64,000 nt of DNA from NCBI GenBank assembly GCA_902610815.1, contig CACLXG010000002.1:834-64833 (forward strand), in the 5' to 3' direction. Below, one piece after another: positions 19,775 through 64,000 of the stretch. The number at the start of each line of letters is the position of its first letter. The first letter of the stretch is position 1. The notes under the pieces were generated by a model. That model saw only the letters and a program-made list of their open reading frames with translations. It ran no database searches and was not told where the DNA came from. Both the position numbers and the translations under genes were made by a program. This DNA is from an uncultured Candidatus Actinomarina sp. Its GTDB lineage: Bacteria > Actinomycetota > Acidimicrobiia > Actinomarinales > Actinomarinaceae.

Positions 19775-19810
19775 CAATGTTTAAAAGGTAACCATTGTTA
19801 AAAAAACCTA
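19775..19810 (+). promoter_or_regulatory. candidate preQ1-I-like riboswitch aptamer (copy A), leader of ecfA1
   Basis: CAATG/CATTG stem. Loop AGGT is complementary to ACCT after a 7-A tract. GUAAC-P1-UUAAAAAAAC resembles class-I preQ1 aptamers. Second copy at 21548. Confidence 0.5.
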
Positions 19811-19830: not shown

Positions 19831-20661
19831 GTGTCTGTAGTAAAAATAGAAAATCTTACTGTCCAATATCTTGGTGAAGAAACAAATGCATTGGATGGGG
19901 TCTCTCTTGAAATTCAAAAAGGAGAATTTGTTGCTTTGTTAGGTGCACATGGTGCCGGTAAAACAACACTATGTCTTTCACTAAATGGTATTGTGCCAAA
20001 CATGATTAGTGCAGATATGTATGGGGCAATAGAAGTATTGGGTGAAGTACCTCCCAAGATTCCCGTAAGGCAACTTGCAACTAAAGTTGGTAGCATTTTT
20101 GACAATCCAGAATTTCAAATGAGTCAGCTTACAGTTTTTGAAGAAGTGGCCTTAGGACTCCAAAATTTAGGAGTGGAAAAAACTACAATAGAAAAGAACA
20201 TATCAGAATCGTTAAAACTTGTCGGCCTAGAGGGGTTTGAGGATAGGTCTCCATTCGAAATATCTGGAGGACAACAACAAAGGTTAGCAATGGCTTCCGC
20301 TTTAGCAATGAAGCCGGAAATTTTAATACTAGACGAACCAACATCTAATCTTGATCCAATTGGAAAAGAAGAAGTTTTCTCTGTTACAAGAAGCCTGAAT
20401 CAAGAAGAAGGATTAACTGTAATAATTGCTGAACATGAAGTAGAAGTTATTGCAGAATTTGCCGATACATTAGTCCTCCTAGACGAGGGAAGGATAAACG
20501 AAGTAGGAACTCCACAGGATATATTTCCAAGATTTGTTGATCACCAAGAGGATATTGGTGTAAGGGTTCCTCAAGTTACGGATCTAGCTTCAAGAAAAAC
20601 TCAAAATTTTAATTCAATTCCTGTTACCTTAGATGAGTCAGTTGAGATGTATAAAAAATGA
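19831..20661 (+). CDS. ecfA1: ECF transporter ATPase component A1
   Basis: GTG start after AAGAGG. Walker A GAHGAGKT, signature SGGQQQR, Walker B ILILDEPT. Confidence 0.85.
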   Translation: MSVVKIENLTVQYLGEETNALDGVSLEIQKGEFVALLGAHGAGKTTLCLSLNGIVPNMISADMYGAIEVLGEVPPKIPVRQLATKVGSIFDNPEFQMSQLTVFEEVALGLQNLGVEKTTIEKNISESLKLVGLEGFEDRSPFEISGGQQQRLAMASALAMKPEILILDEPTSNLDPIGKEEVFSVTRSLNQEEGLTVIIAEHEVEVIAEFADTLVLLDEGRINEVGTPQDIFPRFVDHQEDIGVRVPQVTDLASRKTQNFNSIPVTLDESVEMYKK

Positions 20662-21461
20662 CAAAAATAAAAGTATCTAATTTGCAACACAAATATCCAA
20701 ATGGTGTTATTGCTGTAAGTAATGTAAATGTTGAAATTGAACAAGGTGAACAAGTGTCCGTTGTAGGTCAAAACGGATCTGGAAAAACCACATTAGTTAA
20801 ACATTGGAACGGCTTGTTAAAACCCACTCAAGGAAATGTTTTTGTTGGAGAACTAGATACTTTAGATCATTCTGTAAATATTCTTGCAAGAAAAGTAGGT
20901 TATGTATTTCAAAATCCAAACCATCAAATTTTTGCAGCTTCTGTAAGAGATGAGTTAGAATTTGGTTTAATCAATATTGGATTAGATGAGGAGGAAGTAA
21001 ACAGCAGGACTAACCGTATTGCTGAAGAATTTGGATTAGTAGAATATTTAGAGACAAATCCTTACAGGTTAGGATTTTCATTAAGAAAAACGGTTGGAAT
21101 GGCATCAATAATAGCTATGGAGCCAGATGTTGTTGTTCTTGATGAACCAACAACGGGTCAAGATTATCTTGGAATAAAGGCAATTAGAACAGCAATAAAA
21201 AAATTAAAAGATCAAGGCAAAACAGTAATAGTGGTTTCTCATGATATGCCACTTGTTGCAGAAGACACAGACAGGGTTTTAGTAATGTGTGATACAGAAT
21301 TAATTTTTGATGGAACACCATCCAAGCTATTTGCAAGTAAAGAGATATTATCCAAAACAAATCTCCTACCACCACAAATTACTAGTTTTACACAAAAAGT
21401 TGGTTTAAATATTGAAGGCGAAAGCGTGCTATCTGTTGAAGAAGCTGAAAAAGTCCTTTAA
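20658..21461 (+). CDS. ecfA2: ECF transporter ATPase component A2 (degenerate signature motif)
   Basis: Walker A GQNGSGKT, Walker B VVVLDEPT, H-loop VSHD. The LSGGQ position reads LGFSL. Confidence 0.85.
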   Translation: MTKIKVSNLQHKYPNGVIAVSNVNVEIEQGEQVSVVGQNGSGKTTLVKHWNGLLKPTQGNVFVGELDTLDHSVNILARKVGYVFQNPNHQIFAASVRDELEFGLINIGLDEEEVNSRTNRIAEEFGLVEYLETNPYRLGFSLRKTVGMASIIAMEPDVVVLDEPTTGQDYLGIKAIRTAIKKLKDQGKTVIVVSHDMPLVAEDTDRVLVMCDTELIFDGTPSKLFASKEILSKTNLLPPQITSFTQKVGLNIEGESVLSVEEAEKVL

Positions 21462-21547
21462 CCATCTCTTTTAATGAGTTACAACATATTTTGTAAATTT
21501 TAATAAAATAACATGCACGCCATATATTTTGTTTATAGAATAAAATT

Positions 21548-21581
21548 AACAATGTTCGTTGGGATCATTGTTAAAAAACCC
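21548..21581 (+). promoter_or_regulatory. candidate preQ1-I-like riboswitch aptamer (copy B), leader of the S-component operon
   Basis: AACAATG/CATTGTT stem. Loop GGG is complementary to CCC after a 6-A tract. Same layout as copy A with compensatory P2 change. Confidence 0.5.
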
Positions 21582-21584
21582 AAT

Positions 21585-21624
21585 CAATGCTGATAATTAA
21601 TTTATTAGCATTGTAATTTCTTTC
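21585..21624 (+). terminator. putative riboswitch expression-platform terminator
   Basis: 12-bp stem CAATGCTGATAA / TTATTAGCATTG (one G-T pair), 5-nt loop, then TAATTTCTTTC. The 5' arm can instead pair with the aptamer 3' arm CATTG. Confidence 0.45.
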
Positions 21625-21638
21625 GAGGGGGAGATTAG

Positions 21639-22331
21639 ATGAACGAACAAGCCACTCAAGGCGAAAAACTAAGTAGCTCTACTGGCGGTGGAGTTCCATT
21701 AACATATGTTATTGCATTAGTACCTGTTGCTTCTGTTTTGAATGTTATTGGTGGAACTGTCGCTGGAGCTTTAAAGCTACCTATATTCTTGGACATGATT
21801 GGAACAGCAGTTGTTGCTATGACAATAGGTCCTTGGTGGGGAGCATTAGTTGGAGTGATTACAAACCTAACAATGGGCTTTTTAACAGGTCCAGTTTCTA
21901 TTCCATTCGCGGCATGCAACGTAGTTGGTGCTTTGGTATGGGGTTATGGAACAAGATGGGGCTTTGCTAACGATAAACTAAGATTCTTTGGTTTGTCTGT
22001 AGCATCAGCAGTATTTGTATCACTAATGGCAGCACCAATTGTTATATTTGTTTTTGGTGGAGCCACAGGACATGCTTCAGATGTTTTAACAGCTGGATTA
22101 TTAGCAGCTGGAAATGACATGTGGGCAGCAGTGTTTTCAAGTAACATTATTGTTTCTTCAGCTGATAAAATTCTTTCGTCATTCTTGGCGTTAGCAATTA
22201 TAGGAGCATTACCTACAAACTTGCAGGTAACAGGTCCAATAATGAAGGCTGAAAATATGGGCACAGCAGTCTTAATTACAGCAGGTACAGTAGTAGGTGT
22301 AATTCTTACTGTTGTATCAATGAACTTGTAG
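21639..22331 (+). CDS. ECF transporter substrate-specific (S) component
   Basis: 6 TM segments; LKLPIFLDMIGTAVVAMTIGPWWGALVG matches the general S-component pattern. Strong GAGGGGGAG SD. Confidence 0.7.
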   Translation: MNEQATQGEKLSSSTGGGVPLTYVIALVPVASVLNVIGGTVAGALKLPIFLDMIGTAVVAMTIGPWWGALVGVITNLTMGFLTGPVSIPFAACNVVGALVWGYGTRWGFANDKLRFFGLSVASAVFVSLMAAPIVIFVFGGATGHASDVLTAGLLAAGNDMWAAVFSSNIIVSSADKILSSFLALAIIGALPTNLQVTGPIMKAENMGTAVLITAGTVVGVILTVVSMNL

Positions 22332-22344
22332 ATAGGAGGATAGT

Positions 22345-22533
22345 ATGAGAGAAGTAACATCAAAAGATGGTCTTGGTGCTGGTATTATCGGCCTGGGTAT
22401 AATGTATGCAATTTATCCATGGGCATCTTCTGAAATGGCAGGAGACGCAGCCTTTGGTATGTTGTCAGGGTTATGCTTGGTTGCAAGTTTACTCACAGTA
22501 CTTTGTGGGCTAGCTGTCTTAAGAGCAAAATAA
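22345..22533 (+). CDS. small membrane protein
   Basis: 62 aa with 2 TM segments, in-operon between the S component and the phosphorylases. Confidence 0.4.
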   Translation: MREVTSKDGLGAGIIGLGIMYAIYPWASSEMAGDAAFGMLSGLCLVASLLTVLCGLAVLRAK

Positions 22534-24070: not shown

Positions 24071-24969
24071 TGGCAAGAGTACCAGTTGGAGCATACGTTC
24101 CAGGCGATTCTTTCTTTCACAAAGCTCATCCGTTTGTAAAGTTTTACTGGGTTGGCTCATTTGTAATATTTTGTTTTTTTAACAAAAATCCCTATGTGAA
24201 TTATTCGCTAACTTTAATCGGTTTAGTATTCGTTGTTCTTACAAAAACTTTTCCAAGTTATGTAAGAGCTATGGTTATTTTCTTTCCTGCGGCATTTGCA
24301 ATGATATTTCTTCAATCGATTGTCCCTCCAGCAGTATTCGATAATCCAGAATTATTAGCAGAAATTGGTCCCTTTTCTCTTTATACTGAATCAATTATTT
24401 ACGGGATGCTATTTAGTAGTCGTATTTTATGTATATGTACATGGTCTATATTAATGTTGATGACTTTACACCCAGGAGAGTTATCTTCAGCGCTACAAAA
24501 AGCTCGCGTACCTTATACAGTAAATTTCATGATAACAACAACCTTGCAACTCATTCCTATTCTTCAAAGAGAATTTGGAATTATTTTATCCGCACAAAAA
24601 TCAAGGGCCATGGAAGCTCAGGGATTTAAGGCTTTGTTACCATCAATAATTCCAGTTTTTGCAGGGGCTATAGATCGAGTTTCTCAGCTATCTATGAGTC
24701 TGGAAACAAGAGCTTTTGGTGCTAACAAAGAAAGAACACTATTGAGATATAAAGAGTTTACGACAAAAGAAACAGTATTGTCTATTCTTTCTCTAGCACC
24801 AATTGTTCTTGTATTTTATGGAAGGGCAAACTTTAATGCATTTGTGCCATTAGAAGGGTTTTCTTTATCTCCTTTTGCTGGTTCTTTCATTGTAATTTTT
24901 TGTGGCACAGCTTTTTTATCTATAATTTTCGGTGCAACTTTCGCCATAAGACTTCTTGGTAAGAAGTAG
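24070..24969 (+). CDS. ecfT: ECF transporter transmembrane (T) component, CbiQ family
   Basis: About 6 TM segments with the two coupling-helix Arg motifs (KSRAMEAQGF, LETRAFG). Confidence 0.75.
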   Translation: MARVPVGAYVPGDSFFHKAHPFVKFYWVGSFVIFCFFNKNPYVNYSLTLIGLVFVVLTKTFPSYVRAMVIFFPAAFAMIFLQSIVPPAVFDNPELLAEIGPFSLYTESIIYGMLFSSRILCICTWSILMLMTLHPGELSSALQKARVPYTVNFMITTTLQLIPILQREFGIILSAQKSRAMEAQGFKALLPSIIPVFAGAIDRVSQLSMSLETRAFGANKERTLLRYKEFTTKETVLSILSLAPIVLVFYGRANFNAFVPLEGFSLSPFAGSFIVIFCGTAFLSIIFGATFAIRLLGKK

Positions 24970-58060: not shown

Positions 58061-58135
58061 GGGGGCGTGGTGAAGTCTGGAGTTCACGCCTGCCTGTCAC
58101 GCAGGAGGTCGCGGGTTCGAATCCCGTCGTCCCCG
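58061..58135 (+). tRNA. tRNA-Asp (anticodon GUC)
   Basis: CCTGC-CTGTCAC-GCAGG anticodon arm and GCGGG-TTCGAAT-CCCGT T arm, matching the usual bacterial tRNA-Asp pattern. Confidence 0.9.
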
Positions 58136-58140
58136 CTGAA

Positions 58141-58213
58141 GGCCAGATAGCTCAGTCGGTAGAGCACTTGTCTGAAAAACAAGGGGTCGGCAGTTCGATT
58201 CTGCCTCTGGCCA
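58141..58213 (+). tRNA. tRNA-Phe (anticodon GAA)
   Basis: GGCCAGA/TCTGGCC acceptor, anticodon loop CTGAAAA, T arm GGCAG-TTCGATT-CTGCC. Confidence 0.9.
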
Positions 58214-58236
58214 CAAGTAAATTTCTTAATTTATTT

Positions 58237-59715: not shown

Positions 59716-61431
59716 TTGTTAATGATAAAATTTATTATGAATACAAGCTCTTTTTTTTCAGATTTAAAATTTACATCTATTAAAAAAAATAAGTATTTCT
59801 ATTTTTTAATAATTTTTTACACTTTGTCGCTTTTTTATATGAAAGAAATAATTTTTCTTTCATATAACACTTCAGATAGTCCAGATTTTATGTTTTACTT
59901 TACTTTTCTAGAATTCAATTTTGGTGCGTTTAATCAACCCCAAAGTGAACAGGGATTTATTTTTTATGATCTACATTCTTATTATTTCTATTTAAGAAAT
60001 TTTAGTTTTACACCAGAAAGCTTTTTCATTTATATGTCTAAAAGTGTTCAGGAAATGAATTTTATATTATTTTTAATTGGATCGTTAGGTATTTATCAAT
60101 TACTTAAAATCTTTGAATACAATAAAATACAGATATTAACATCCGTAATTCTTATTAATTTTTTACCTATCAGTATTGCTCAAAGAATGGTTTTAAAGCC
60201 GGAAATTTTTGCTTATGCATTAATACCTTGGATAGTTTATGCATTAGAAAAATTCATAATTACAAAAAAGATAAAATATTTATTTATATCAATACCTTTT
60301 TTTGTTTCACTGGTCACTCAAAAAGGTTCTATTTTTGCTATGTTGTCAATATTTATTTTCATATTTTACTTTCCAAGAATTTATGCTCATATAAGCAAAA
60401 AAAATATGATATTCTTTTTTTTATTATTATCAATAACTCTTTCAACTTTAATAATGACAGTTGCCGAAAACAGTAATTTAAATAATAGAGGATTTTTTGA
60501 TTTACAAAGCGGTTCACAAACAGATGAAAAATATAACAATAAGGCAAATGTTGATTTAATTTATAAATTTAATCCAGAAAAGATGTTTTTTTATCCATAT
60601 AAACATCTGCATAATCAATCAGCAATTCATATTACTTTACTCGATTCTTTTGGTGACTATTTCGACCTGTATTGGGAGAATGATGCTTCTAATTTTTATA
60701 AATTGAGGCATGATTTATTTGTTTTTGAAAAATCTGATAATTTAAAATTACCTAAAGTAAATCTTGAAAAAAAAGAAATTAGCATATTTGTTCAAGATGA
60801 AAAACCAAATTACTATATAAGAAAAACAACTTCAGCGATAGTTGCATTAGTATTTTTTTCCTTTTTCTTTACATTTTTTCAAAAGTCTGACAAAAATAAA
60901 AAAAAGTTTTTTTTAATGCCATTTATTGGGTACATAACTCTCTTGATCCATGTGACTACAGGTTTCCCAGAAAACAATTTTGATCCAAAAATAGGTGATA
61001 CGTTAAAACCTTTATATTATTCATTCTTTATTATTATTGCTTTTTCATTCACAATATCAGAATTAGTTAAAAACAAACTAAGGAGCATACTAGCCCTTTT
61101 ATTGTTAGTTCCAGTTTTTCTATATATTTTCGGTTTTCCAAGACTTTCTGAAAATATTACATCATCAGACATACAACAAGTAAATTTATTTTCTGAATTT
61201 TGTAATGTAAATAATTTTATTTTTAATCTTGATATGAAAGACGATTGTAAAGTAGTTGAATTACAAAAAATAAATAATAAAAATTATAAAAATTATGAAA
61301 ATTTTACTAGAAAACCCAATTTTCATTTAGTTAATTTTTTATTAATAGTAACGAATCTAATTGGTGTAAGTTATTTACAAATTCATGAATTTAAATTCTC
61401 TTTTTTAAAAACTATAAAGAAAAGAATATAA
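59716..61431 (+). CDS. 571-aa polytopic membrane protein (ArnT/PMT-like glycosyltransferase is a guess)
   Basis: More than 10 TM segments in an extremely A+T-rich gene. The track start is TTG. Confidence 0.45.
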   Translation: MLMIKFIMNTSSFFSDLKFTSIKKNKYFYFLIIFYTLSLFYMKEIIFLSYNTSDSPDFMFYFTFLEFNFGAFNQPQSEQGFIFYDLHSYYFYLRNFSFTPESFFIYMSKSVQEMNFILFLIGSLGIYQLLKIFEYNKIQILTSVILINFLPISIAQRMVLKPEIFAYALIPWIVYALEKFIITKKIKYLFISIPFFVSLVTQKGSIFAMLSIFIFIFYFPRIYAHISKKNMIFFFLLLSITLSTLIMTVAENSNLNNRGFFDLQSGSQTDEKYNNKANVDLIYKFNPEKMFFYPYKHLHNQSAIHITLLDSFGDYFDLYWENDASNFYKLRHDLFVFEKSDNLKLPKVNLEKKEISIFVQDEKPNYYIRKTTSAIVALVFFSFFFTFFQKSDKNKKKFFLMPFIGYITLLIHVTTGFPENNFDPKIGDTLKPLYYSFFIIIAFSFTISELVKNKLRSILALLLLVPVFLYIFGFPRLSENITSSDIQQVNLFSEFCNVNNFIFNLDMKDDCKVVELQKINNKNYKNYENFTRKPNFHLVNFLLIVTNLIGVSYLQIHEFKFSFLKTIKKRI

Positions 61432-62930
61432 ATTATAAATATTGGCAAATAATTTGTAGAGTCACTGAAAATAAAATTTATCGACAATATAAAAATAAAA
61501 AATAACCTACCATTATTCCAAAAATTATTCGTTAAATATTTAACCATGACTAACAAAAATAAGAGTATCCCTAATAAGCCAAAAAATAAAAGTATAGAAG
61601 TTAAAAATAGATTTTGATTTAAAATTCTTTGAATATTGGACTCTACGTAAAGTTGATTAAAATTTAATGGACCACTACCTAAAATGAGTTCCAAAAAAGA
61701 TGGATTATATATTTCAAAAAAATATTTTATTAAATTAAATTTGTTTTGAGCAACAGATAAGAAACTTGAAAAATTTATTAACATAGAAAAAATAATTACT
61801 AAAGGCAAGTAGTCAATAGCTTCAAGTGACCTACTAATTAACAACTTATATAAGAAAATAATAATGAATAAAAATATAATTCTTTCATCAATTTTAAATA
61901 AATTAAAGAAATCGAAATAAATAATATTGTTTGTAATTTGTGTGTTAAAAAAATTAGTGACGAAGCTAATAAAATTAACTCTCCAGCCAAAAATGTTTAA
62001 AAATATTATTACTGAAATTACTGTAGAAAAGCTTTTCATAAATTTTTTGTATGAAAAAAAATTAATATTTTCTAAAACAAACTTGTAAGCACCAAGTATA
62101 AATAAAATAAAAAAAGTTGAATAAAAAAATATTGAGTAAAAATCATATGATGTGCTTGAAAATCCTGGATAAATATTTTTAGATAGAATATATGTATTTC
62201 GTGCATTTAAAGTCCAAAGACAATTTATTAACATATAAATCTTAAAAAATTTGTAATAATTTCTATTAAAACTCAAAGATTCAATACCTAAATAAACAAT
62301 AGGTATTGAAAGAATGTTTAAATTAGAATTAGAAACTATACCTGAAAAAAGCAATAAGTATGGAAGTAAATTAATCAAGTGATGCTTTTTACTTTTATAA
62401 ACTTCAATTAATAAAATTGAAATTAAAAATAAAAAAATAGAAATTAAAACATAAGTTCTGAATTTAAAAGGGTCTAGAAAATAAAAGTTTGTTACATAGA
62501 ACTTGCGATCAGAAAAAATCAAAAACGTAAATAGCAAACTTAAATAAGAAATCTTTATGTAGCTTGGTTTTAGTTTTAAATTTTTTATTGGTTTCTTGTT
62601 TCTTAGTAAAAAAACAAGAAAAAGTACATAGAATGATGAGCTCATTAAAAAATTTGTACCTACAAAAACTGTTTTACCATCTTTGATTTGTGACACTCTA
62701 CCGAAACATAGTATTGAAGAATAATCATCATTTACGAATTGAAAATTGGAAATTTCTCTATTATTGTAAATAAATTCAAATAACGAAATCTTGCATGGAT
62801 TAATTTCATAAAATGTGTAGTCTTCTGTTTTACTTGGAGGTTTCATATCATCAAAATAATTTGCATTAAACCATGGTGTAAGAACAAATAAAACTATTAA
62901 AACAAAATTTTTTGTTTTATTAAATTTCAT
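61383..62930 (-). CDS. 515-aa polytopic membrane protein, same architecture as 52786..54876
   Basis: N-terminal TM segment, a two-Cys ectodomain, then many TM segments. Preceded by the small paralogous gene. Confidence 0.45.
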   Translation of the reverse strand: MKFNKTKNFVLIVLFVLTPWFNANYFDDMKPPSKTEDYTFYEINPCKISLFEFIYNNREISNFQFVNDDYSSILCFGRVSQIKDGKTVFVGTNFLMSSSFYVLFLVFLLRNKKPIKNLKLKPSYIKISYLSLLFTFLIFSDRKFYVTNFYFLDPFKFRTYVLISIFLFLISILLIEVYKSKKHHLINLLPYLLLFSGIVSNSNLNILSIPIVYLGIESLSFNRNYYKFFKIYMLINCLWTLNARNTYILSKNIYPGFSSTSYDFYSIFFYSTFFILFILGAYKFVLENINFFSYKKFMKSFSTVISVIIFLNIFGWRVNFISFVTNFFNTQITNNIIYFDFFNLFKIDERIIFLFIIIFLYKLLISRSLEAIDYLPLVIIFSMLINFSSFLSVAQNKFNLIKYFFEIYNPSFLELILGSGPLNFNQLYVESNIQRILNQNLFLTSILLFFGLLGILLFLLVMVKYLTNNFWNNGRLFFIFILSINFIFSDSTNYLPIFIIYILFFIVFKKENLNS

Positions 62931-63222
62931 ATTTTAAACGTAAAAGATATTTTCTTTTCAAAACTGTCACAACTATTAAAACTAATAACAAATATTGAGA
63001 AAAATATTCAACATTCATACTTTCACTCCTGTTCCAGCCACCTAGCACATAGTGTTCACATTCTTCGTATGAATTAACCATTACTTCTCTATTAAATTTA
63101 TCAGTTAATTTTACAGATTTAAAGCTTGGGTCATTTTCAAATATAAAATTACCATTTGTATCAAAACTTATAAAGCTTTCTTCTGTTGATTTAACTCCGC
63201 ACAATTCTTTTACAGAAAACAT
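62920..63222 (-). CDS. small C-tail-anchored protein, paralog of 54873..55172
   Basis: ELCG...GNFIF...VMVNSYEECEHYVLGGW plus a C-terminal TM segment. 11-nt overlap with the downstream giant gene. Confidence 0.5.
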   Translation of the reverse strand: MFSVKELCGVKSTEESFISFDTNGNFIFENDPSFKSVKLTDKFNREVMVNSYEECEHYVLGGWNRSESMNVEYFSQYLLLVLIVVTVLKRKYLLRLKYEI

Positions 63223-63459
63223 ATATATGAGTATATTTAAGTATTATTAATAAACCTGCCAAAACTATATAACACGAAAATATTTATACAGAATAAGTTA
63301 AAGTTCTTTGGGTTAGCTCATATCTGAAAAACAATTGAGTGATATCATAAATGTTAACAACAGGAATATATTTATAAAAATTTTATTTAGAATCAAGTTT
63401 GAAAGAAATTAATTTAAGTGCAGAATAATACAAGATTAAATACGTCAAAATTTTTTTTA

Positions 63460-64000
63460 ATGGCAGTTTTTTCTTTATTATTGTTTTTTCAAATAAGCTA
63501 TTTTTATTTATTTATTTTTATAATATTTTTTACAAAAATATATAAGTTTATTGATGATCAAAAATCCTTTTTTTTAATTAATACAATTATTTTTTATTTA
63601 CTTAGGATGGTATTTTCTTTATCAAATAATTTTGATAGATTTTGGGATCAATTATCTTTATATAATTTTTCATACTCAAATATTCGGTTCTATGATTTAC
63701 AACAAAACCTAGTTTCTATGAAATGCATACGTGGAAATGTTGATGGGTATTACTATAAGTTTTCTTCAACTAGCTATGTTTCTTGTCCATTCTCAGCAAA
63801 GTACGGACCTCTTTCTACAAAAATTCCATTTTTTGGAGATATATGGATTGCAACTATTATCTTATCATTTTGTGCAATCATTACTTATTTGTATGTTTAT
63901 AAGCTTGTTTTAGATAGATCTGAAAATTATTTTTTTATTACTGCTTTATTTCTATCACCATCCTCAAATTTTTTGGTTGAAAGAATGAACATTGATATTT
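63460..64000 (+). CDS. membrane protein, 3' end beyond window (not in ORF track)
   Basis: Hand translation from ATG 63460 (or in-frame GTG 63418) gives 180 codons with no stop: MAVFSLLLFFQISYF...KCIRGNVDGYYYKFSSTSYVSCPF... It has a TM segment, a two-Cys loop and a further TM segment. Confidence 0.5.
   Translation, partial: MAVFSLLLFFQISYFYLFIFIIFFTKIYKFIDDQKSFFLINTIIFYLLRMVFSLSNNFDRFWDQLSLYNFSYSNIRFYDLQQNLVSMKCIRGNVDGYYYKFSSTSYVSCPFSAKYGPLSTKIPFFGDIWIATIILSFCAIITYLYVYKLVLDRSENYFFITALFLSPSSNFLVERMNIDI

Follow-up and report, generated by a model that had tools for sequence, protein, structure and literature searches.

Candidatus Actinomarina is among the most abundant streamlined marine actinobacteria, and preQ1-I is the smallest known riboswitch fold. 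In the 64-kb window analysed here (the window being the whole stretch of DNA under study), a short inverted repeat precedes an ECF S-component gene, and it raises the question of whether this element, copy B, is a working preQ1-I-like riboswitch with a terminator platform, related to a similar element, copy A, in front of ecfA1. This was the original prediction, from which an H-type pseudoknot and a covarying downstream hairpin (hairpin 2) have held, whereas a match to the Rfam PreQ1 model, the specificity cytosine, and the antiterminator have not.

The operon that carries both copies is ordered ecfA1-ecfA2-S-62aa-PNPa-PNPb-ecfT-MFS with conserved synteny, such that the S gene is followed by a 62-aa open reading frame, two uridine-phosphorylase-like (PNP/UDP-family) genes, ecfT, and an MFS gene. 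The S protein shows a weak match to the generic ECF_trnsprt family and a match below the cut-off to the NCBIfam CD3073 family; in a family profile comparison with QueT/QrtT, it was unmatched to QueT. The features discussed below are as follows.

19775-19809, forward strand: copy A, before ecfA1, a canonical family member (52 bits with the family model)
21536-21541, forward strand: -10-like hexamer TAGAAT, putative internal promoter for the S-component transcript (sequence and orthologue conservation)
21548-21554, forward strand: P1 5' strand AACAAUG of copy B, with its core CAAUG at 21550-54 (sequence and fold)
21555-21557, forward strand: L1, UUC, the UU being family-invariant (columns T10 and T11 of alignment A2) and at the U6/C7 position of preQ1-I
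21558-21563, forward strand: P2 5' strand GUUGGG of the pseudoknot (duplex with 21579-84, dG -8.1 kcal/mol)
21564-21565, forward strand: L2, cut to AU, where the rest of the family has (U)AAC ending in the specificity cytosine (alignment)
21566-21572, forward strand: P1 3' strand CAUUGUU (sequence, fold, and family pairing)
21573-21578, forward strand: A6 tract within L3, the A-run being invariant in alignment A2 (28 copies)
21579-21584, forward strand: P2 3' strand CCCAAU (duplex computation), invariant in 13 window-type sequences
21585-21613, forward strand: hairpin 2, 12-bp stem CAAUGCUGAUAA/UUAUUAGCAUUG with loop UUAAU (dG -12.8 kcal/mol; scan and covariation)
21614-21637, forward strand: hairpin 3, UAAUUUCUUU (21614-23) paired with GGGGAGAUUA (21628-37) (minimum-free-energy folds)
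21639-22331, forward strand: ECF S-component gene, ATG at 21639, downstream of the copy B leader

A conserved pseudoknot family in Candidatus Actinomarina

Copies A and B are members of a conserved family of small H-type pseudoknot RNAs in Candidatus Actinomarina. The family comprises 30 distinct copies, drawn from sites A and B as well as from tandem arrays, and its locations are (i) before ecfA1, (ii) before the ECF S gene, (iii) in tandem arrays of a sister clade, and (iv) on 2 further contigs. Its consensus has a 5-bp P1 whose 5' strand is followed by UU, then a loop segment rich in G and an L2 of '(U)AAC'; the 3' half consists of an A-rich L3 of 8-9 nt and a CCU tail, which forms pairs with the loop. 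The specificity C is present in copy A, as well as in 25 of the 27 other distinct copies, mostly as AAC. Copy A is composed of P1 CAAUG/CAUUG, the loop UUUAAAAGGUAAC, L3 UUAAAAAAA, and P2 AGGU:ACCU, and the family copies score 39-58 bits with model R1. Consistent with the proposed relatedness of the two sites, a covariance model (model R2) trained on 26 related copies, with copy B and its near-identical relatives left out, still matched copy B in the 64-kb window (21546-21587, 34.0 bits, E = 7e-6), with the next background match at 14.4 bits. By its sequence, copy B is a homologue, and appears to be a diverged paralogue, of copy A.

Both helices of the pseudoknot are supported by covariation. 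In P1, 94.3% of cells are paired over 28 members, a value reached by 0 of 500 shuffles, although shuffle-based covariation tests overstate significance for sequences as closely related as these. Two P1 pairs show compensatory AU to GC changes, and L221 and L228, for which neither a phage match nor a named homologue was found, carry P1 in a third version, UGAUG/CAUCG. P2 was tested by a permutation script because MAFFT and covariance-model alignments misregister its GG/CC columns; ranked by dG, the own loop-tail pairing won against permuted tails in all of 2000 trials, as exemplified by GUUGGG:CCCAAU, GAAAAGGUU:AACCUUUUC, UGAGAGG:CCUUUUA, and GUGAUGG:UCAUUAC. The joint change of the pseudoknot partners, originally read from the two copies of the window, is thereby extended to many orthologues.

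In leaders of the sister clade, 2-4 or more aptamers follow one another head-to-tail ahead of a single gene. The units of these arrays abut, with the P2 3' strand running straight into the next P1, on which it could stack coaxially, and without individual expression platforms; their subtypes differ in L2 (AAC, CC, or UC). Upstream of SBP_bac_5 orthologues, the motif is present in L133 only and absent from L211-L214, which indicates a sporadic association. In 69 homologous operons of other phyla, neither model R1 nor a relaxed preQ1-I-like pattern detected the family motif.

Relation to preQ1-I and the predicted behaviour of copy A

The family is absent from Rfam and is missed by its current models. 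At the gathering threshold (39 bits for PreQ1, RF00522), Rfam reported only 4 tRNAs in the whole window and nothing in 12 distant loci. The proposed covariance-model check against Rfam PreQ1 also went against copy B, which was unmatched even at E<=10 in 121 nt, as was copy A in 61 nt at the same cut-off. The best PreQ1 score in a relative was 11.9 bits (L009, 5922-5961), and permissive Rfam scans of L221, L228, and L233 gave no usable family match. The architecture is nevertheless that of preQ1-I, with a 5-6-bp P1 and a P2 formed by the loop with the 3' tail, and the core match extends to UU on top of P1, AC ahead of its 3' strand (the L2 adenine and C15 of the described architecture), an A-rich L3, and a G-C ceiling pair (PMC11625349, PMC10622847).

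We folded the copy A leader in its free and aptamer-sequestered states. The free ensemble hid the Shine-Dalgarno (SD) sequence more than the sequestered state in 10 of 10 orthologues, which, within nearest-neighbour folding that carries no pseudoknot energies, predicts an ON switch. A tail with the sequence CCU can be expected to pair with practically any SD, which limits what can be read from this comparison, and by itself the leader of copy A shows no unusual stability (z = -0.68). To our knowledge, the known preQ1 switches repress, and were preQ1 the ligand, it would thus be unexpected to find an uptake operon under an ON switch.

These observations bear on what we regard as a possible alternative, in which the whole family is a divergent preQ1-I that senses preQ1 or a related 7-deazaguanine and represses a queuosine-precursor salvage operon, with the ECF importer accompanied by phosphorylases in place of QueK, and copy B being a decayed duplicate. 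Its core positions coincide with the preQ1-contacting bases of the Thermoanaerobacter tengcongensis (Tte) and E. coli aptamers (the U that follows P1, the A and then C of L2, the final A of L3, and the G-C ceiling); queK-qrtT-queL of C. difficile is a close functional parallel (PMC11477304); and PreQ1, though weak, is the best Rfam match in the relative mentioned above. On the other hand, Rfam PreQ1 lies far under threshold or is absent for every copy tested, the S protein falls (below cut-off) in the CD3073 family rather than QueT/QrtT, and the copy A folds predict ON rather than OFF. Moreover, no preQ1-like element was found in the equivalent operon of Chloroflexota, Microbacteriaceae, or Rhizobiaceae, and the neighbours of this operon elsewhere, namely an IU-nucleoside hydrolase and a GntR regulator in L070 and a PfkB-family kinase in L067, look like general nucleoside use. 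Finally, tandem arrangements of preQ1-I have not been observed (PMC9481103).

Copy B keeps the fold and lacks the specificity cytosine

In copy B, the predicted 7-bp stem is present, AACAATG (21548-21554) pairing with CATTGTT (21566-21572), and the predicted pseudoknot between GGG (21561-63) and CCC (21579-81) after the A6 tract proved to be longer, with 6 bp between 21558-63 and 21579-84. Both helices of the window copy are therefore extended, P2 to 6 bp (GUUGGG:CCCAAU) and P1 to 7 bp. P1 of copy B alone folds with -9.4 kcal/mol without ligand, and the 97-nt copy B leader folds better than all of 200 shuffles (z = -4.97). As in preQ1-I, where U6 contacts the ligand (PMC10622847), UU at 21555-56 directly follows the P1 5' strand. 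With P1 counted as 5 bp, the segment after the P1 3' strand is L3, UUAAAAAA (21571-78), which matches the A-rich L3 described for preQ1-I (PMC11625349).

The one departure concerns L2. In preQ1-I, a specificity cytosine lies 5' of the P1 3' strand, as UC in type I and as AC in types II/III, and is 97% conserved in type III. The original prediction had cautioned that this cytosine might be unmatched, and rightly so, since copy B has AU at this place (21564-65). The cytosine is missing because the L2 'AAC' was lost by a lineage-specific 3-nt deletion, as seen from UUCGUAAGGAUAAC in L089 versus UUCGUUGGGAU in the window. A C15U mutant of the E. coli type III aptamer showed the weakest preQ1 binding, with an EC50 about 311-fold weaker (PMC10622847). 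Judged by its sequence, copy B is thus unlikely to sense preQ1 in the manner of canonical aptamers.

Among 13 window-type leaders, the aptamer varies only at 21557 (C/U among close relatives), 21558 (A instead of G in 9 of 12 close relatives, by which a G.U pair becomes A-U), and 21564 (A/C/U, with CU or UU at 21564-65 in close relatives). All three lie in loops or at a wobble pair, which speaks for continuing selection on the structure of copy B. U21565 is invariant across these 13 sequences, all of them very similar, and together with the conserved features that are kept, this suggests that copy B may still bind something.

One such possibility, which we consider unlikely, is that copy B has been re-tuned, with U21565 reading an adenine-face ligand (adenine, 2-aminopurine-like bases, or 7-deazaadenine) and copy A a guanine-face ligand, giving the operon two inputs. 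The invariance of U21565 beside the variable 21564, the retention of all remaining family-invariant positions, the nucleoside phosphorylases of the operon, which release free bases, and the altered specificity of purine riboswitches upon a C-to-U exchange at the discriminator (PMC11477304) would all fit this idea. However, an L2 of only 2 nt cannot keep as such the preQ1-I pocket geometry, in which an adenine of L2 lies over the ceiling pair and is followed by the discriminator; the 6-bp P2 and 7-bp P1 suggest ligand-free folding; the folding models show no coupling to the ribosome-binding site; and the 13 sequences are too alike for the invariance to carry weight.

The copy B platform is predicted to form two hairpins

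As originally noted, the TAGAAT hexamer (21536-41) ends 6 nt before P1. A TANNNT hexamer (TAGAAT, TAAAAT, TAGACT, or TAAGAT) is kept in 9 of 9 orthologous B leaders, 8-9 nt before CAATG, and we infer a transcription start at ~21547-21549, at the foot of P1.

The 12-bp hairpin announced at 21585-21613 was recovered by our terminator scan, and compensatory changes in 6 of 10 pairs (8 leaders) show that this hairpin 2 is a real conserved structure. A role as terminator or attenuator is possible. Its stem has 3 G-C pairs among 12 bp, its tail, UAAUUUCUUU, starts with UAA, and the scan yielded 2 terminator-like matches against 1.9 expected from shuffles, which is not above chance; in L003-type leaders, a T-run follows 7-8 nt past the hairpin. 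Good U-tracts are often missing from actinobacterial terminators, and hairpin 2 could therefore still terminate functionally.

The tail had been taken for the U-tail of a terminator. Instead, it pairs with GGGGAGAUUA, including the SD of the S gene (GAGGGGGAG, 21625-33), which is thereby masked in hairpin 3. Minimum-free-energy folds predict hairpin 3 in the window and, with differing sequences, in 9 of 9 orthologous B leaders. In constrained folding of copy B leaders, opening the SD strand costs 3.3-7.7 kcal/mol, and no other partner for the anti-SD strand and no antiterminator were found. Further, in our folding models, SD/AUG masking is equal with the aptamer free or sequestered.

It is accordingly improbable that copy B is a working transcriptional preQ1-I riboswitch, in which a ligand-stabilised P1 lets 21585-21613 terminate, while the P1 3' arm otherwise acts as antiterminator. 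The sequence basis of this proposal is correct, in that the P1 5' arm recurs as CAATG at 21585-89, which is complementary to CAUUG at 21566-70; a covarying hairpin with a T-rich tail fits a simple terminator pattern, and the B. subtilis preQ1-I switch acts by termination (PMC11625349). However, the antiterminator would have only 5 bp over a 14-nt loop, against the 12-bp hairpin 2, and this CAUUG:CAAUG helix is absent from minimum-free-energy, growing-transcript (prefix), and constrained folds. It is confined to the window lineage, since the two remaining hairpin types have AUUGG or CUUGAU as this arm, neither sequence being complementary to the P1 3' arm. The stability of P1 without ligand, the lack of the specificity C and of an Rfam PreQ1 match, and the pairing of the UAA-initial tail with the SD weigh against it as well. 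A toggle among P1, antiterminator, and terminator is thus not supported by our folding of the copy B platform.

Reading CAATG-N-CATTG as a DNA operator for a dimeric repressor over the transcription start is highly improbable, as the perfect 5-7-bp inverted repeats just past -10-like hexamers at both sites are outweighed by (i) P1 arm spacing of 10 to 15 nt across family copies, (ii) P2 loop-to-tail covariation, (iii) strongly asymmetric conservation (UU, GG, AAC, A-tract, and CCU), and (iv) an orientation that is always that of the downstream gene, including abutting head-to-tail arrays.

Other readings were rejected. An archaeal TATA-box/operator (TTTATA before both copies, CCA-less tRNAs) was dropped, the homologues of the S protein and the loci being named Candidatus Actinomarina. 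P1 always ends in AUG/GUG followed by UUU/UUC, which would give the short peptides MFVGIIVKKPNQC (copy B) and MFKR (copy A), each then stopping; a leader peptide was rejected because peptide lengths and sequences are unconserved, and the pairing is conserved. A mobile repeat was set aside with the low copy number and an element always sense-oriented at the 5' UTR, as was a PyrR-type protein-binding hairpin, copy B presumably bearing no resemblance to the PyrR loop consensus.

Proposed mechanism and significance

Our preferred reading, to which we assign about an even chance (roughly 0.5), is a diverged family copy in which copy B is the deviant member with a two-hairpin platform and copy A is an ON-type switch. 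It builds on the family membership, the covariation of P1, P2, and hairpin 2, the predicted hairpin 3, the deletion, and the gene context; ligand dependence, the sign of regulation, and the transcription start are inferred. The family would sit at the very 5' end of ECF-transporter and nucleoside-phosphorylase operon transcripts, A before ecfA1 and B before the S gene. In intact copies, ligand would close P2 and take the anti-SD-like CCU tail out of play. In copy A without ligand, the free tail and A-tract (AAAACCU) would pair with the ribosome-binding region (AGGUUUU), such that sequestration of the tail by ligand would expose the SD and make copy A an ON switch. For copy B, folding most likely needs no guanine-face ligand of the kind that copy A would recognise, and this copy would then be a pre-formed 5'-terminal pseudoknot, or possibly a re-tuned sensor using U21565. 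Its platform would combine hairpin 2, possibly an attenuator, with hairpin 3 masking the S-gene ribosome-binding site whatever the state of the aptamer.

More speculative, and rather doubtful, is an extension in which the preQ1-I fold has been reused as an ON switch for a non-preQ1 ligand (a phosphorylase-released nucleobase or a 7-deazapurine), with cooperative tandem arrays and with C in copy A serving guanine-face ligands and U in copy B adenine-face ones.

If confirmed, the family would constitute a new preQ1-I-like aptamer lineage beyond current Rfam models and the first such aptamer in tandem arrays, with a reversed P2 polarity that predicts activation over repression. It would link an aptamer to an ECF transporter and nucleoside-phosphorylase module, which could represent a new route of queuosine/7-deazapurine salvage or, alternatively, a new ligand for the preQ1-I fold. 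It would also document riboswitch copies changing within a species complex, through discriminator deletion, compensatory P2 lengthening, and gain or loss at other genes, and the RNA element may take the place of the protein regulator (GntR) that adjoins the same operon in other phyla.

Comparison with known systems

The closest structural relatives are preQ1-I type II (T. tengcongensis, Bacillus subtilis) and type III (E. coli) aptamers. The family resembles them in (i) its ~34-nt H-type pseudoknot with a 5-bp P1, (ii) the U(U) after the P1 5' strand and the A-rich 8-9-nt L3 along P1, (iii) an L2 ending in A-C, shared by copy A and most members, the window copy B being without the specificity C, and (iv) the first P2 pair (loop G, tail C) and its placement at the 5' terminus of a transporter mRNA. 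It differs in that L1 is 3-4 nt longer and the P2 polarity is reversed, the family loop being purine-rich and SD-like (AGG) and the tail anti-SD-like (CCU), whereas the Tte/E. coli tail carries the SD. Moreover, ON logic is predicted at copy A, tandem arrays occur that are unknown for preQ1-I, and the associated genes encode an ECF transporter and uridine-phosphorylase-like enzymes rather than que genes or QueT.

The queK-qrtT-queL operon of C. difficile, which encodes a nucleoside hydrolase together with an ECF S component and a lyase, is under the control of a preQ1-I switch (PMC11477304), and both systems thus place a small 5' pseudoknot aptamer before an ECF S component and a nucleoside-cleaving enzyme. 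Here, however, two PNP/UDP-family phosphorylases replace the IU-nucleoside hydrolase and radical-SAM lyase, the whole ECF module (A1, A2, and T) and an MFS gene lie inside the operon, the S protein belongs to a different family, and there are two separate aptamer sites per operon.

With the C74/U74 purine riboswitches (guanine versus adenine), the family would share a single discriminator pyrimidine, next to P1, that pairs to the ligand's Watson-Crick face, being C in copy A and U in the window copy B. The purine riboswitch fold is a three-way junction, whereas the family is a pseudoknot, and the change in copy B is a 3-nt deletion that also removes L2, as opposed to a point substitution. Lastly, the sister-clade arrays, with 2 to 4 or more head-to-tail units, resemble tandem riboswitches (glycine, c-di-GMP, TPP, and others), from which they are distinguished by units that abut, lack platforms of their own, and differ in L2 subtype.

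Copy B in its operon

Copy B (21548-21584, +) occupies a 177-nt spacer between ecfA2 and the gene for the ECF S component, in a window from a low-GC (~33%) marine actinobacterium; homologues of the S protein encoded just 3' of it carry the name Candidatus Actinomarina. Its relative, copy A (19775-19809, +), precedes ecfA1, and the operon is ordered as follows:

19831-20661, ecfA1
20658-21461, ecfA2
21639-22331, ECF S-component gene
22345-22533, 62-aa ORF
next, two PNP/UDP-family phosphorylases
next, ecfT
next, MFS transporter

The hydrophobic 62-aa ORF, between S and the first phosphorylase, is kept in all Actinomarina loci (69-98% identity) and had no match in Pfam or NCBIfam. The S protein gives only a weak match to a generic ECF S-component family, matches the NCBIfam 'CD3073 family' below cut-off, and had no match to QueT in family searches including NCBIfam. 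One phosphorylase scored above the NCBIfam uridine-phosphorylase cut-off (295 versus 280 bits) and its paralogue slightly under it (242 bits); the nearest solved structure is Streptococcus pyogenes uridine phosphorylase. Inside ecfT, a 23-nt stretch (24170-24192) shows 83% complementarity to positions 21561-21583, the 3' half of copy B; this is probably chance in AT-rich DNA, though both lie on one polycistronic mRNA. Toward the end of the window, adjacent tRNA-Asp and tRNA-Phe genes (58061-58214) are followed by a fall in GC to 0.22 (60000-64000), an arrangement consistent with the flexible genomic islands, linked to tRNAs, that are described in Ca. Actinomarinales (PMC7771536).

A conserved pseudoknot

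A sequence check found all features of the original prediction in place, including a promoter-like site of copy B's own, and extended its GGG:CCC pseudoknot to a 6-bp P2 helix, GUUGGG (21558-63):CCCAAU (21579-84), with a duplex dG of -8.1 kcal/mol. The proposed kinship with copy A was borne out by a covariance model rebuilt without window-type B copies, which scored 21546-21587 at 34.0 bits (E = 7e-6 in the 64-kb window) against 14.4 bits for the best background match in that window.

The family consensus comprises P1 (CAAUG/CAUUG or CGGUG/CACCG), UU(U/C), N2-6, (A)GG(U), (U)AAC, the P1 3' strand, U(N)A6-8, and CCU, and a covariance model built from 28 distinct copies recovers family copies at 39-58 bits. 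Pairing holds in 94.3% of P1 cells, and two of the pairs show compensatory AU-to-GC changes; the pairing and the covariation score were not equalled in any of 500 column shuffles, while slid controls collapsed. The P2 columns were out of register in both the MAFFT and the model alignments, and we therefore set the loop-tail duplex of each copy against duplexes with permuted tails. The native tail paired better in all 2000 permutations when judged by energy and in 1998 of them when judged by helix length, across P2 sequences as varied as GUUGGG:CCCAAU, AUUGGG:CCCAAU, GAAAAGGUU:AACCUUUUC, UGAGAGG:CCUUUUA, UUAGG:CCUAA, UUAGGU:ACCUGA, and GUGAUGG:UCAUUAC. Because the sequences are related, the P1 and P2 statistics overstate independence; even so, what emerges is the pattern of an H-type pseudoknot. 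The element is unlikely to be a DNA operator, given the variable arm spacing (10-15 nt), the asymmetric conservation, the tail-loop covariation, and the head-to-tail units.

P1 always ends in AUG/GUG followed by UUU/UUC, which creates short ORFs at the predicted transcript 5' end (21552-21593, encoding MFVGIIVKKPNQC-stop in copy B; 19777-19791, encoding MFKR-stop in copy A). Since the peptides are not conserved, these ORFs are probably a by-product of the conserved G-UU.

Distribution of the family

Searching representative genomes for the S protein yielded 80 loci, and further loci came from a metagenome DNA-pattern scan and a look-up of contigs encoding an identical protein. In Actinomarina-type loci the element occurs at two fixed places, site A before ecfA1 and site B before S; both are filled in the window and in loci L001, L002, L003, L011, L082, L089, L103, and L112. 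In a sister clade (L005, L009, L096, L140, L155, L164, L180), site B is occupied by two to four or more copies arranged head to tail:

L009, 5820-5965, tandem array
L005, 115-228, tandem array
L096, 4464-4507, one unit, with an adjacent unit
L155, 7669-7856, tandem array
L140, L164, and L180, tandem arrays

These units abut, with the P2 3' strand (...CCUGA) directly joining the next P1 5' arm (CGGUG), and vary in L2 (AAC, CC, or UC). The element is absent at sites A and B in a subclade whose S protein is 87-90% identical (L004, L006-L008, L010); in these five loci ecfA2 is instead followed by a terminator-like hairpin, and a different AU-rich hairpin precedes the S gene.

Outside the operon, the full motif (56.8 bits) forms a ~36-nt insertion in L133 (3841-3884, -), directly 5' of an orphan SBP_bac_5 (family-5 solute-binding) lipoprotein gene; the insertion is missing from L211-L214, orthologous loci whose proteins are 83-90% identical. 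More distant members were found on two IMG/VR contigs:

L228, 1610-1655, -, distant member, 37 bits
L221, 3470-3515, -, distant member, 37 bits

Here P1 is UGAUG/CAUCG, yet the GGUAAC...UAAAAAAACCU core is identical. The element lies 11 nt 3' of a promoter-like TTAACA-17-TATGTT, with a T-run hairpin and a DUF1289 gene ~130 nt 3' of it; on L221 a PNP_UDP_1 (PNP/UDP-family) nucleosidase lies ~2.2 kb downstream. Neither contig matched Rfam families, phage records, or named proteins. The 28-copy model had no match in the 69 operons from Chloroflexota, Microbacteriaceae, or Rhizobiaceae that are homologous to this one, and found nothing convincing in 100 additional pattern-matched loci. Rfam 15 has no entry for the family.

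Resemblance to preQ1-I and divergence of copy B

PreQ1-I aptamers are marked by a 5-6-bp P1, an A-rich L3 docked in the P1 minor groove, ligand-contacting uridine(s) atop the P1 5' strand, and a specificity cytosine just 5' of the P1 3' strand, which appears as UC in type I and as AC in types II and III; the T. tengcongensis RNA has a G11-C30 ceiling pair, accompanied by the L2 adenine A14 and then C15 (PMC11625349; PMC10622847). Copy A and most family members match this spacing exactly, with G-U-A-A-C, P1, an 8-9-nt L3 ending in A, and C. The Rfam PreQ1 model (RF00522), however, did not match copy A or copy B even at E<=10 on 61-121 nt, and its top score on any relative was 11.9 bits against a threshold of 39. 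We regard the family as functioning in the manner of a preQ1-I aptamer, yet failing formal sequence-model membership. Of the preQ1-I-like identity claimed for copy B, what stands is a genuine member of this pseudoknot family; it is without the ligand-reading cytosine and is not recognisable as RF00522.

Copy B is the family's least canonical member. Set against the site-B copies of close relatives such as L089 (UUCGUAAGGAUAAC-CAUUG), the window type (UUCGUUGGGAU-CAUUG) is short of three bases, AAC, through a deletion that removes L2 and the specificity cytosine, and its P2 and P1 are lengthened to 6 and 7 bp, respectively. In E. coli type III preQ1-I, a C-to-U mutant at the specificity position showed the weakest preQ1 binding, with an EC50 ~311-fold weaker (PMC10622847). 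In 13 leaders of the window type, variation within the aptamer is confined to three positions:

21557, L1 third base
21558, end of P2 (G.U to A-U)
21564, L2 first base

All remaining positions, including U21565, are invariant, and in this shallow sample the variation fits a structure that would still be under selection, and not a decaying relic.

Expression platforms

The copy B leader folds into three hairpins (z = -4.97 versus shuffles). The predicted 12-bp hairpin 2 (21585-21613) is present (dG -12.8 kcal/mol), is also flagged by a simple terminator scan, and is kept in three quite different sequence versions, with compensatory changes in 6 of 10 pairs. The proposed three-helix terminator/antiterminator switch, on the other hand, lacks support: the antiterminator has only 5 bp and is confined to the window lineage, the equivalent arm elsewhere being AAUUGG or CUUGAU and the sole stem-base difference an ordinary compensatory flip within hairpin 2. 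It was absent from minimum-free-energy, growing-transcript, and constrained folds, and P1 alone, at -9.4 kcal/mol, counts against it. Moreover, the supposed terminator tail UAAUUUCUUU (21614-23) pairs with GGGGAGAUUA (21628-37), the Shine-Dalgarno (SD) region of the S gene. This overlooked hairpin 3, in which a U-rich strand pairs with the SD or start codon, is a predicted feature of all orthologous leaders, built from differing sequences, and is worth 3.3-7.7 kcal/mol. In a partition-function model, S-gene SD/AUG accessibility was equal with the copy B aptamer segment free or sequestered, and folding models found no thermodynamic link of copy B to hairpin 2 or hairpin 3.

In copy A, the free tail and A-tract (AAAACCU) pair with AGGUUUU at the ribosome-binding site, and modelled SD openness rises from 0.00-0.47 (free) to 0.42-0.79 (sequestered), being higher when sequestered in 10 of 10 orthologues. 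Copy A is thus a predicted ON switch, although the prediction is a modest one: a CCU tail can pair with any SD, and the copy A leader shows no exceptional stability (z = -0.68). Leaders of the tandem clade share a conserved CUCCUUCGAG 5' of the array (~5790-5800 in L009, with equivalents in L005, L096, L140, and L155), which base-pairs with the SD GAAGGGGG in five of five minimum-free-energy folds, placing the array inside an anti-SD:SD helix; window-type leaders carry the similar UUUCUUUCGAG directly beside the SD, in hairpin 3. These folds suggest that the CUCCUUCGAG:SD helix may be yet another platform arrangement.

Candidate ligand

The conserved cytosine discriminator points to a guanine-face base, and two readings of its identity remain. 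The first, preQ1 or a related 7-deazaguanine, draws on the core match to preQ1-I and on a C. difficile precedent, in which a preQ1-I switch controls three queuosine-salvage genes, for a nucleoside hydrolase, a lyase, and an ECF S component.

The second reading, a different base tied to general nucleoside use, draws on the S-A-A-T-phosphorylase-phosphorylase-MFS cluster, which occurs in other phyla without such an RNA. The homologous operon is preceded in a Microbacteriaceae locus (L070, 4135-5960) by an inosine-uridine nucleoside hydrolase and a GntR/UTRA regulator, and in a Mesorhizobium locus (L067, 3122-5867) by a PfkB-family carbohydrate kinase and a PhyH dioxygenase, and an MFS gene lies 3' of it in both. 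Nucleoside uptake and degradation is also a trait common to the order (PMC7771536). A protein regulator at the homologous operon stands where Actinomarina has the RNA element.

Comparison with known preQ1-I riboswitches

Relative to preQ1-I, the family has a longer L1, and its P2 loop strand is purine-rich and SD-like with a CCU tail, whereas in the T. tengcongensis and E. coli RNAs it is the tail that carries the SD. The family also occurs in tandem arrays, while a 2022 survey counted preQ1-I with the classes for which no tandem arrangement had been seen (PMC9481103). The family is unusual in its tandem arrays, in the reversed polarity of P2, and in a gene association that is new.
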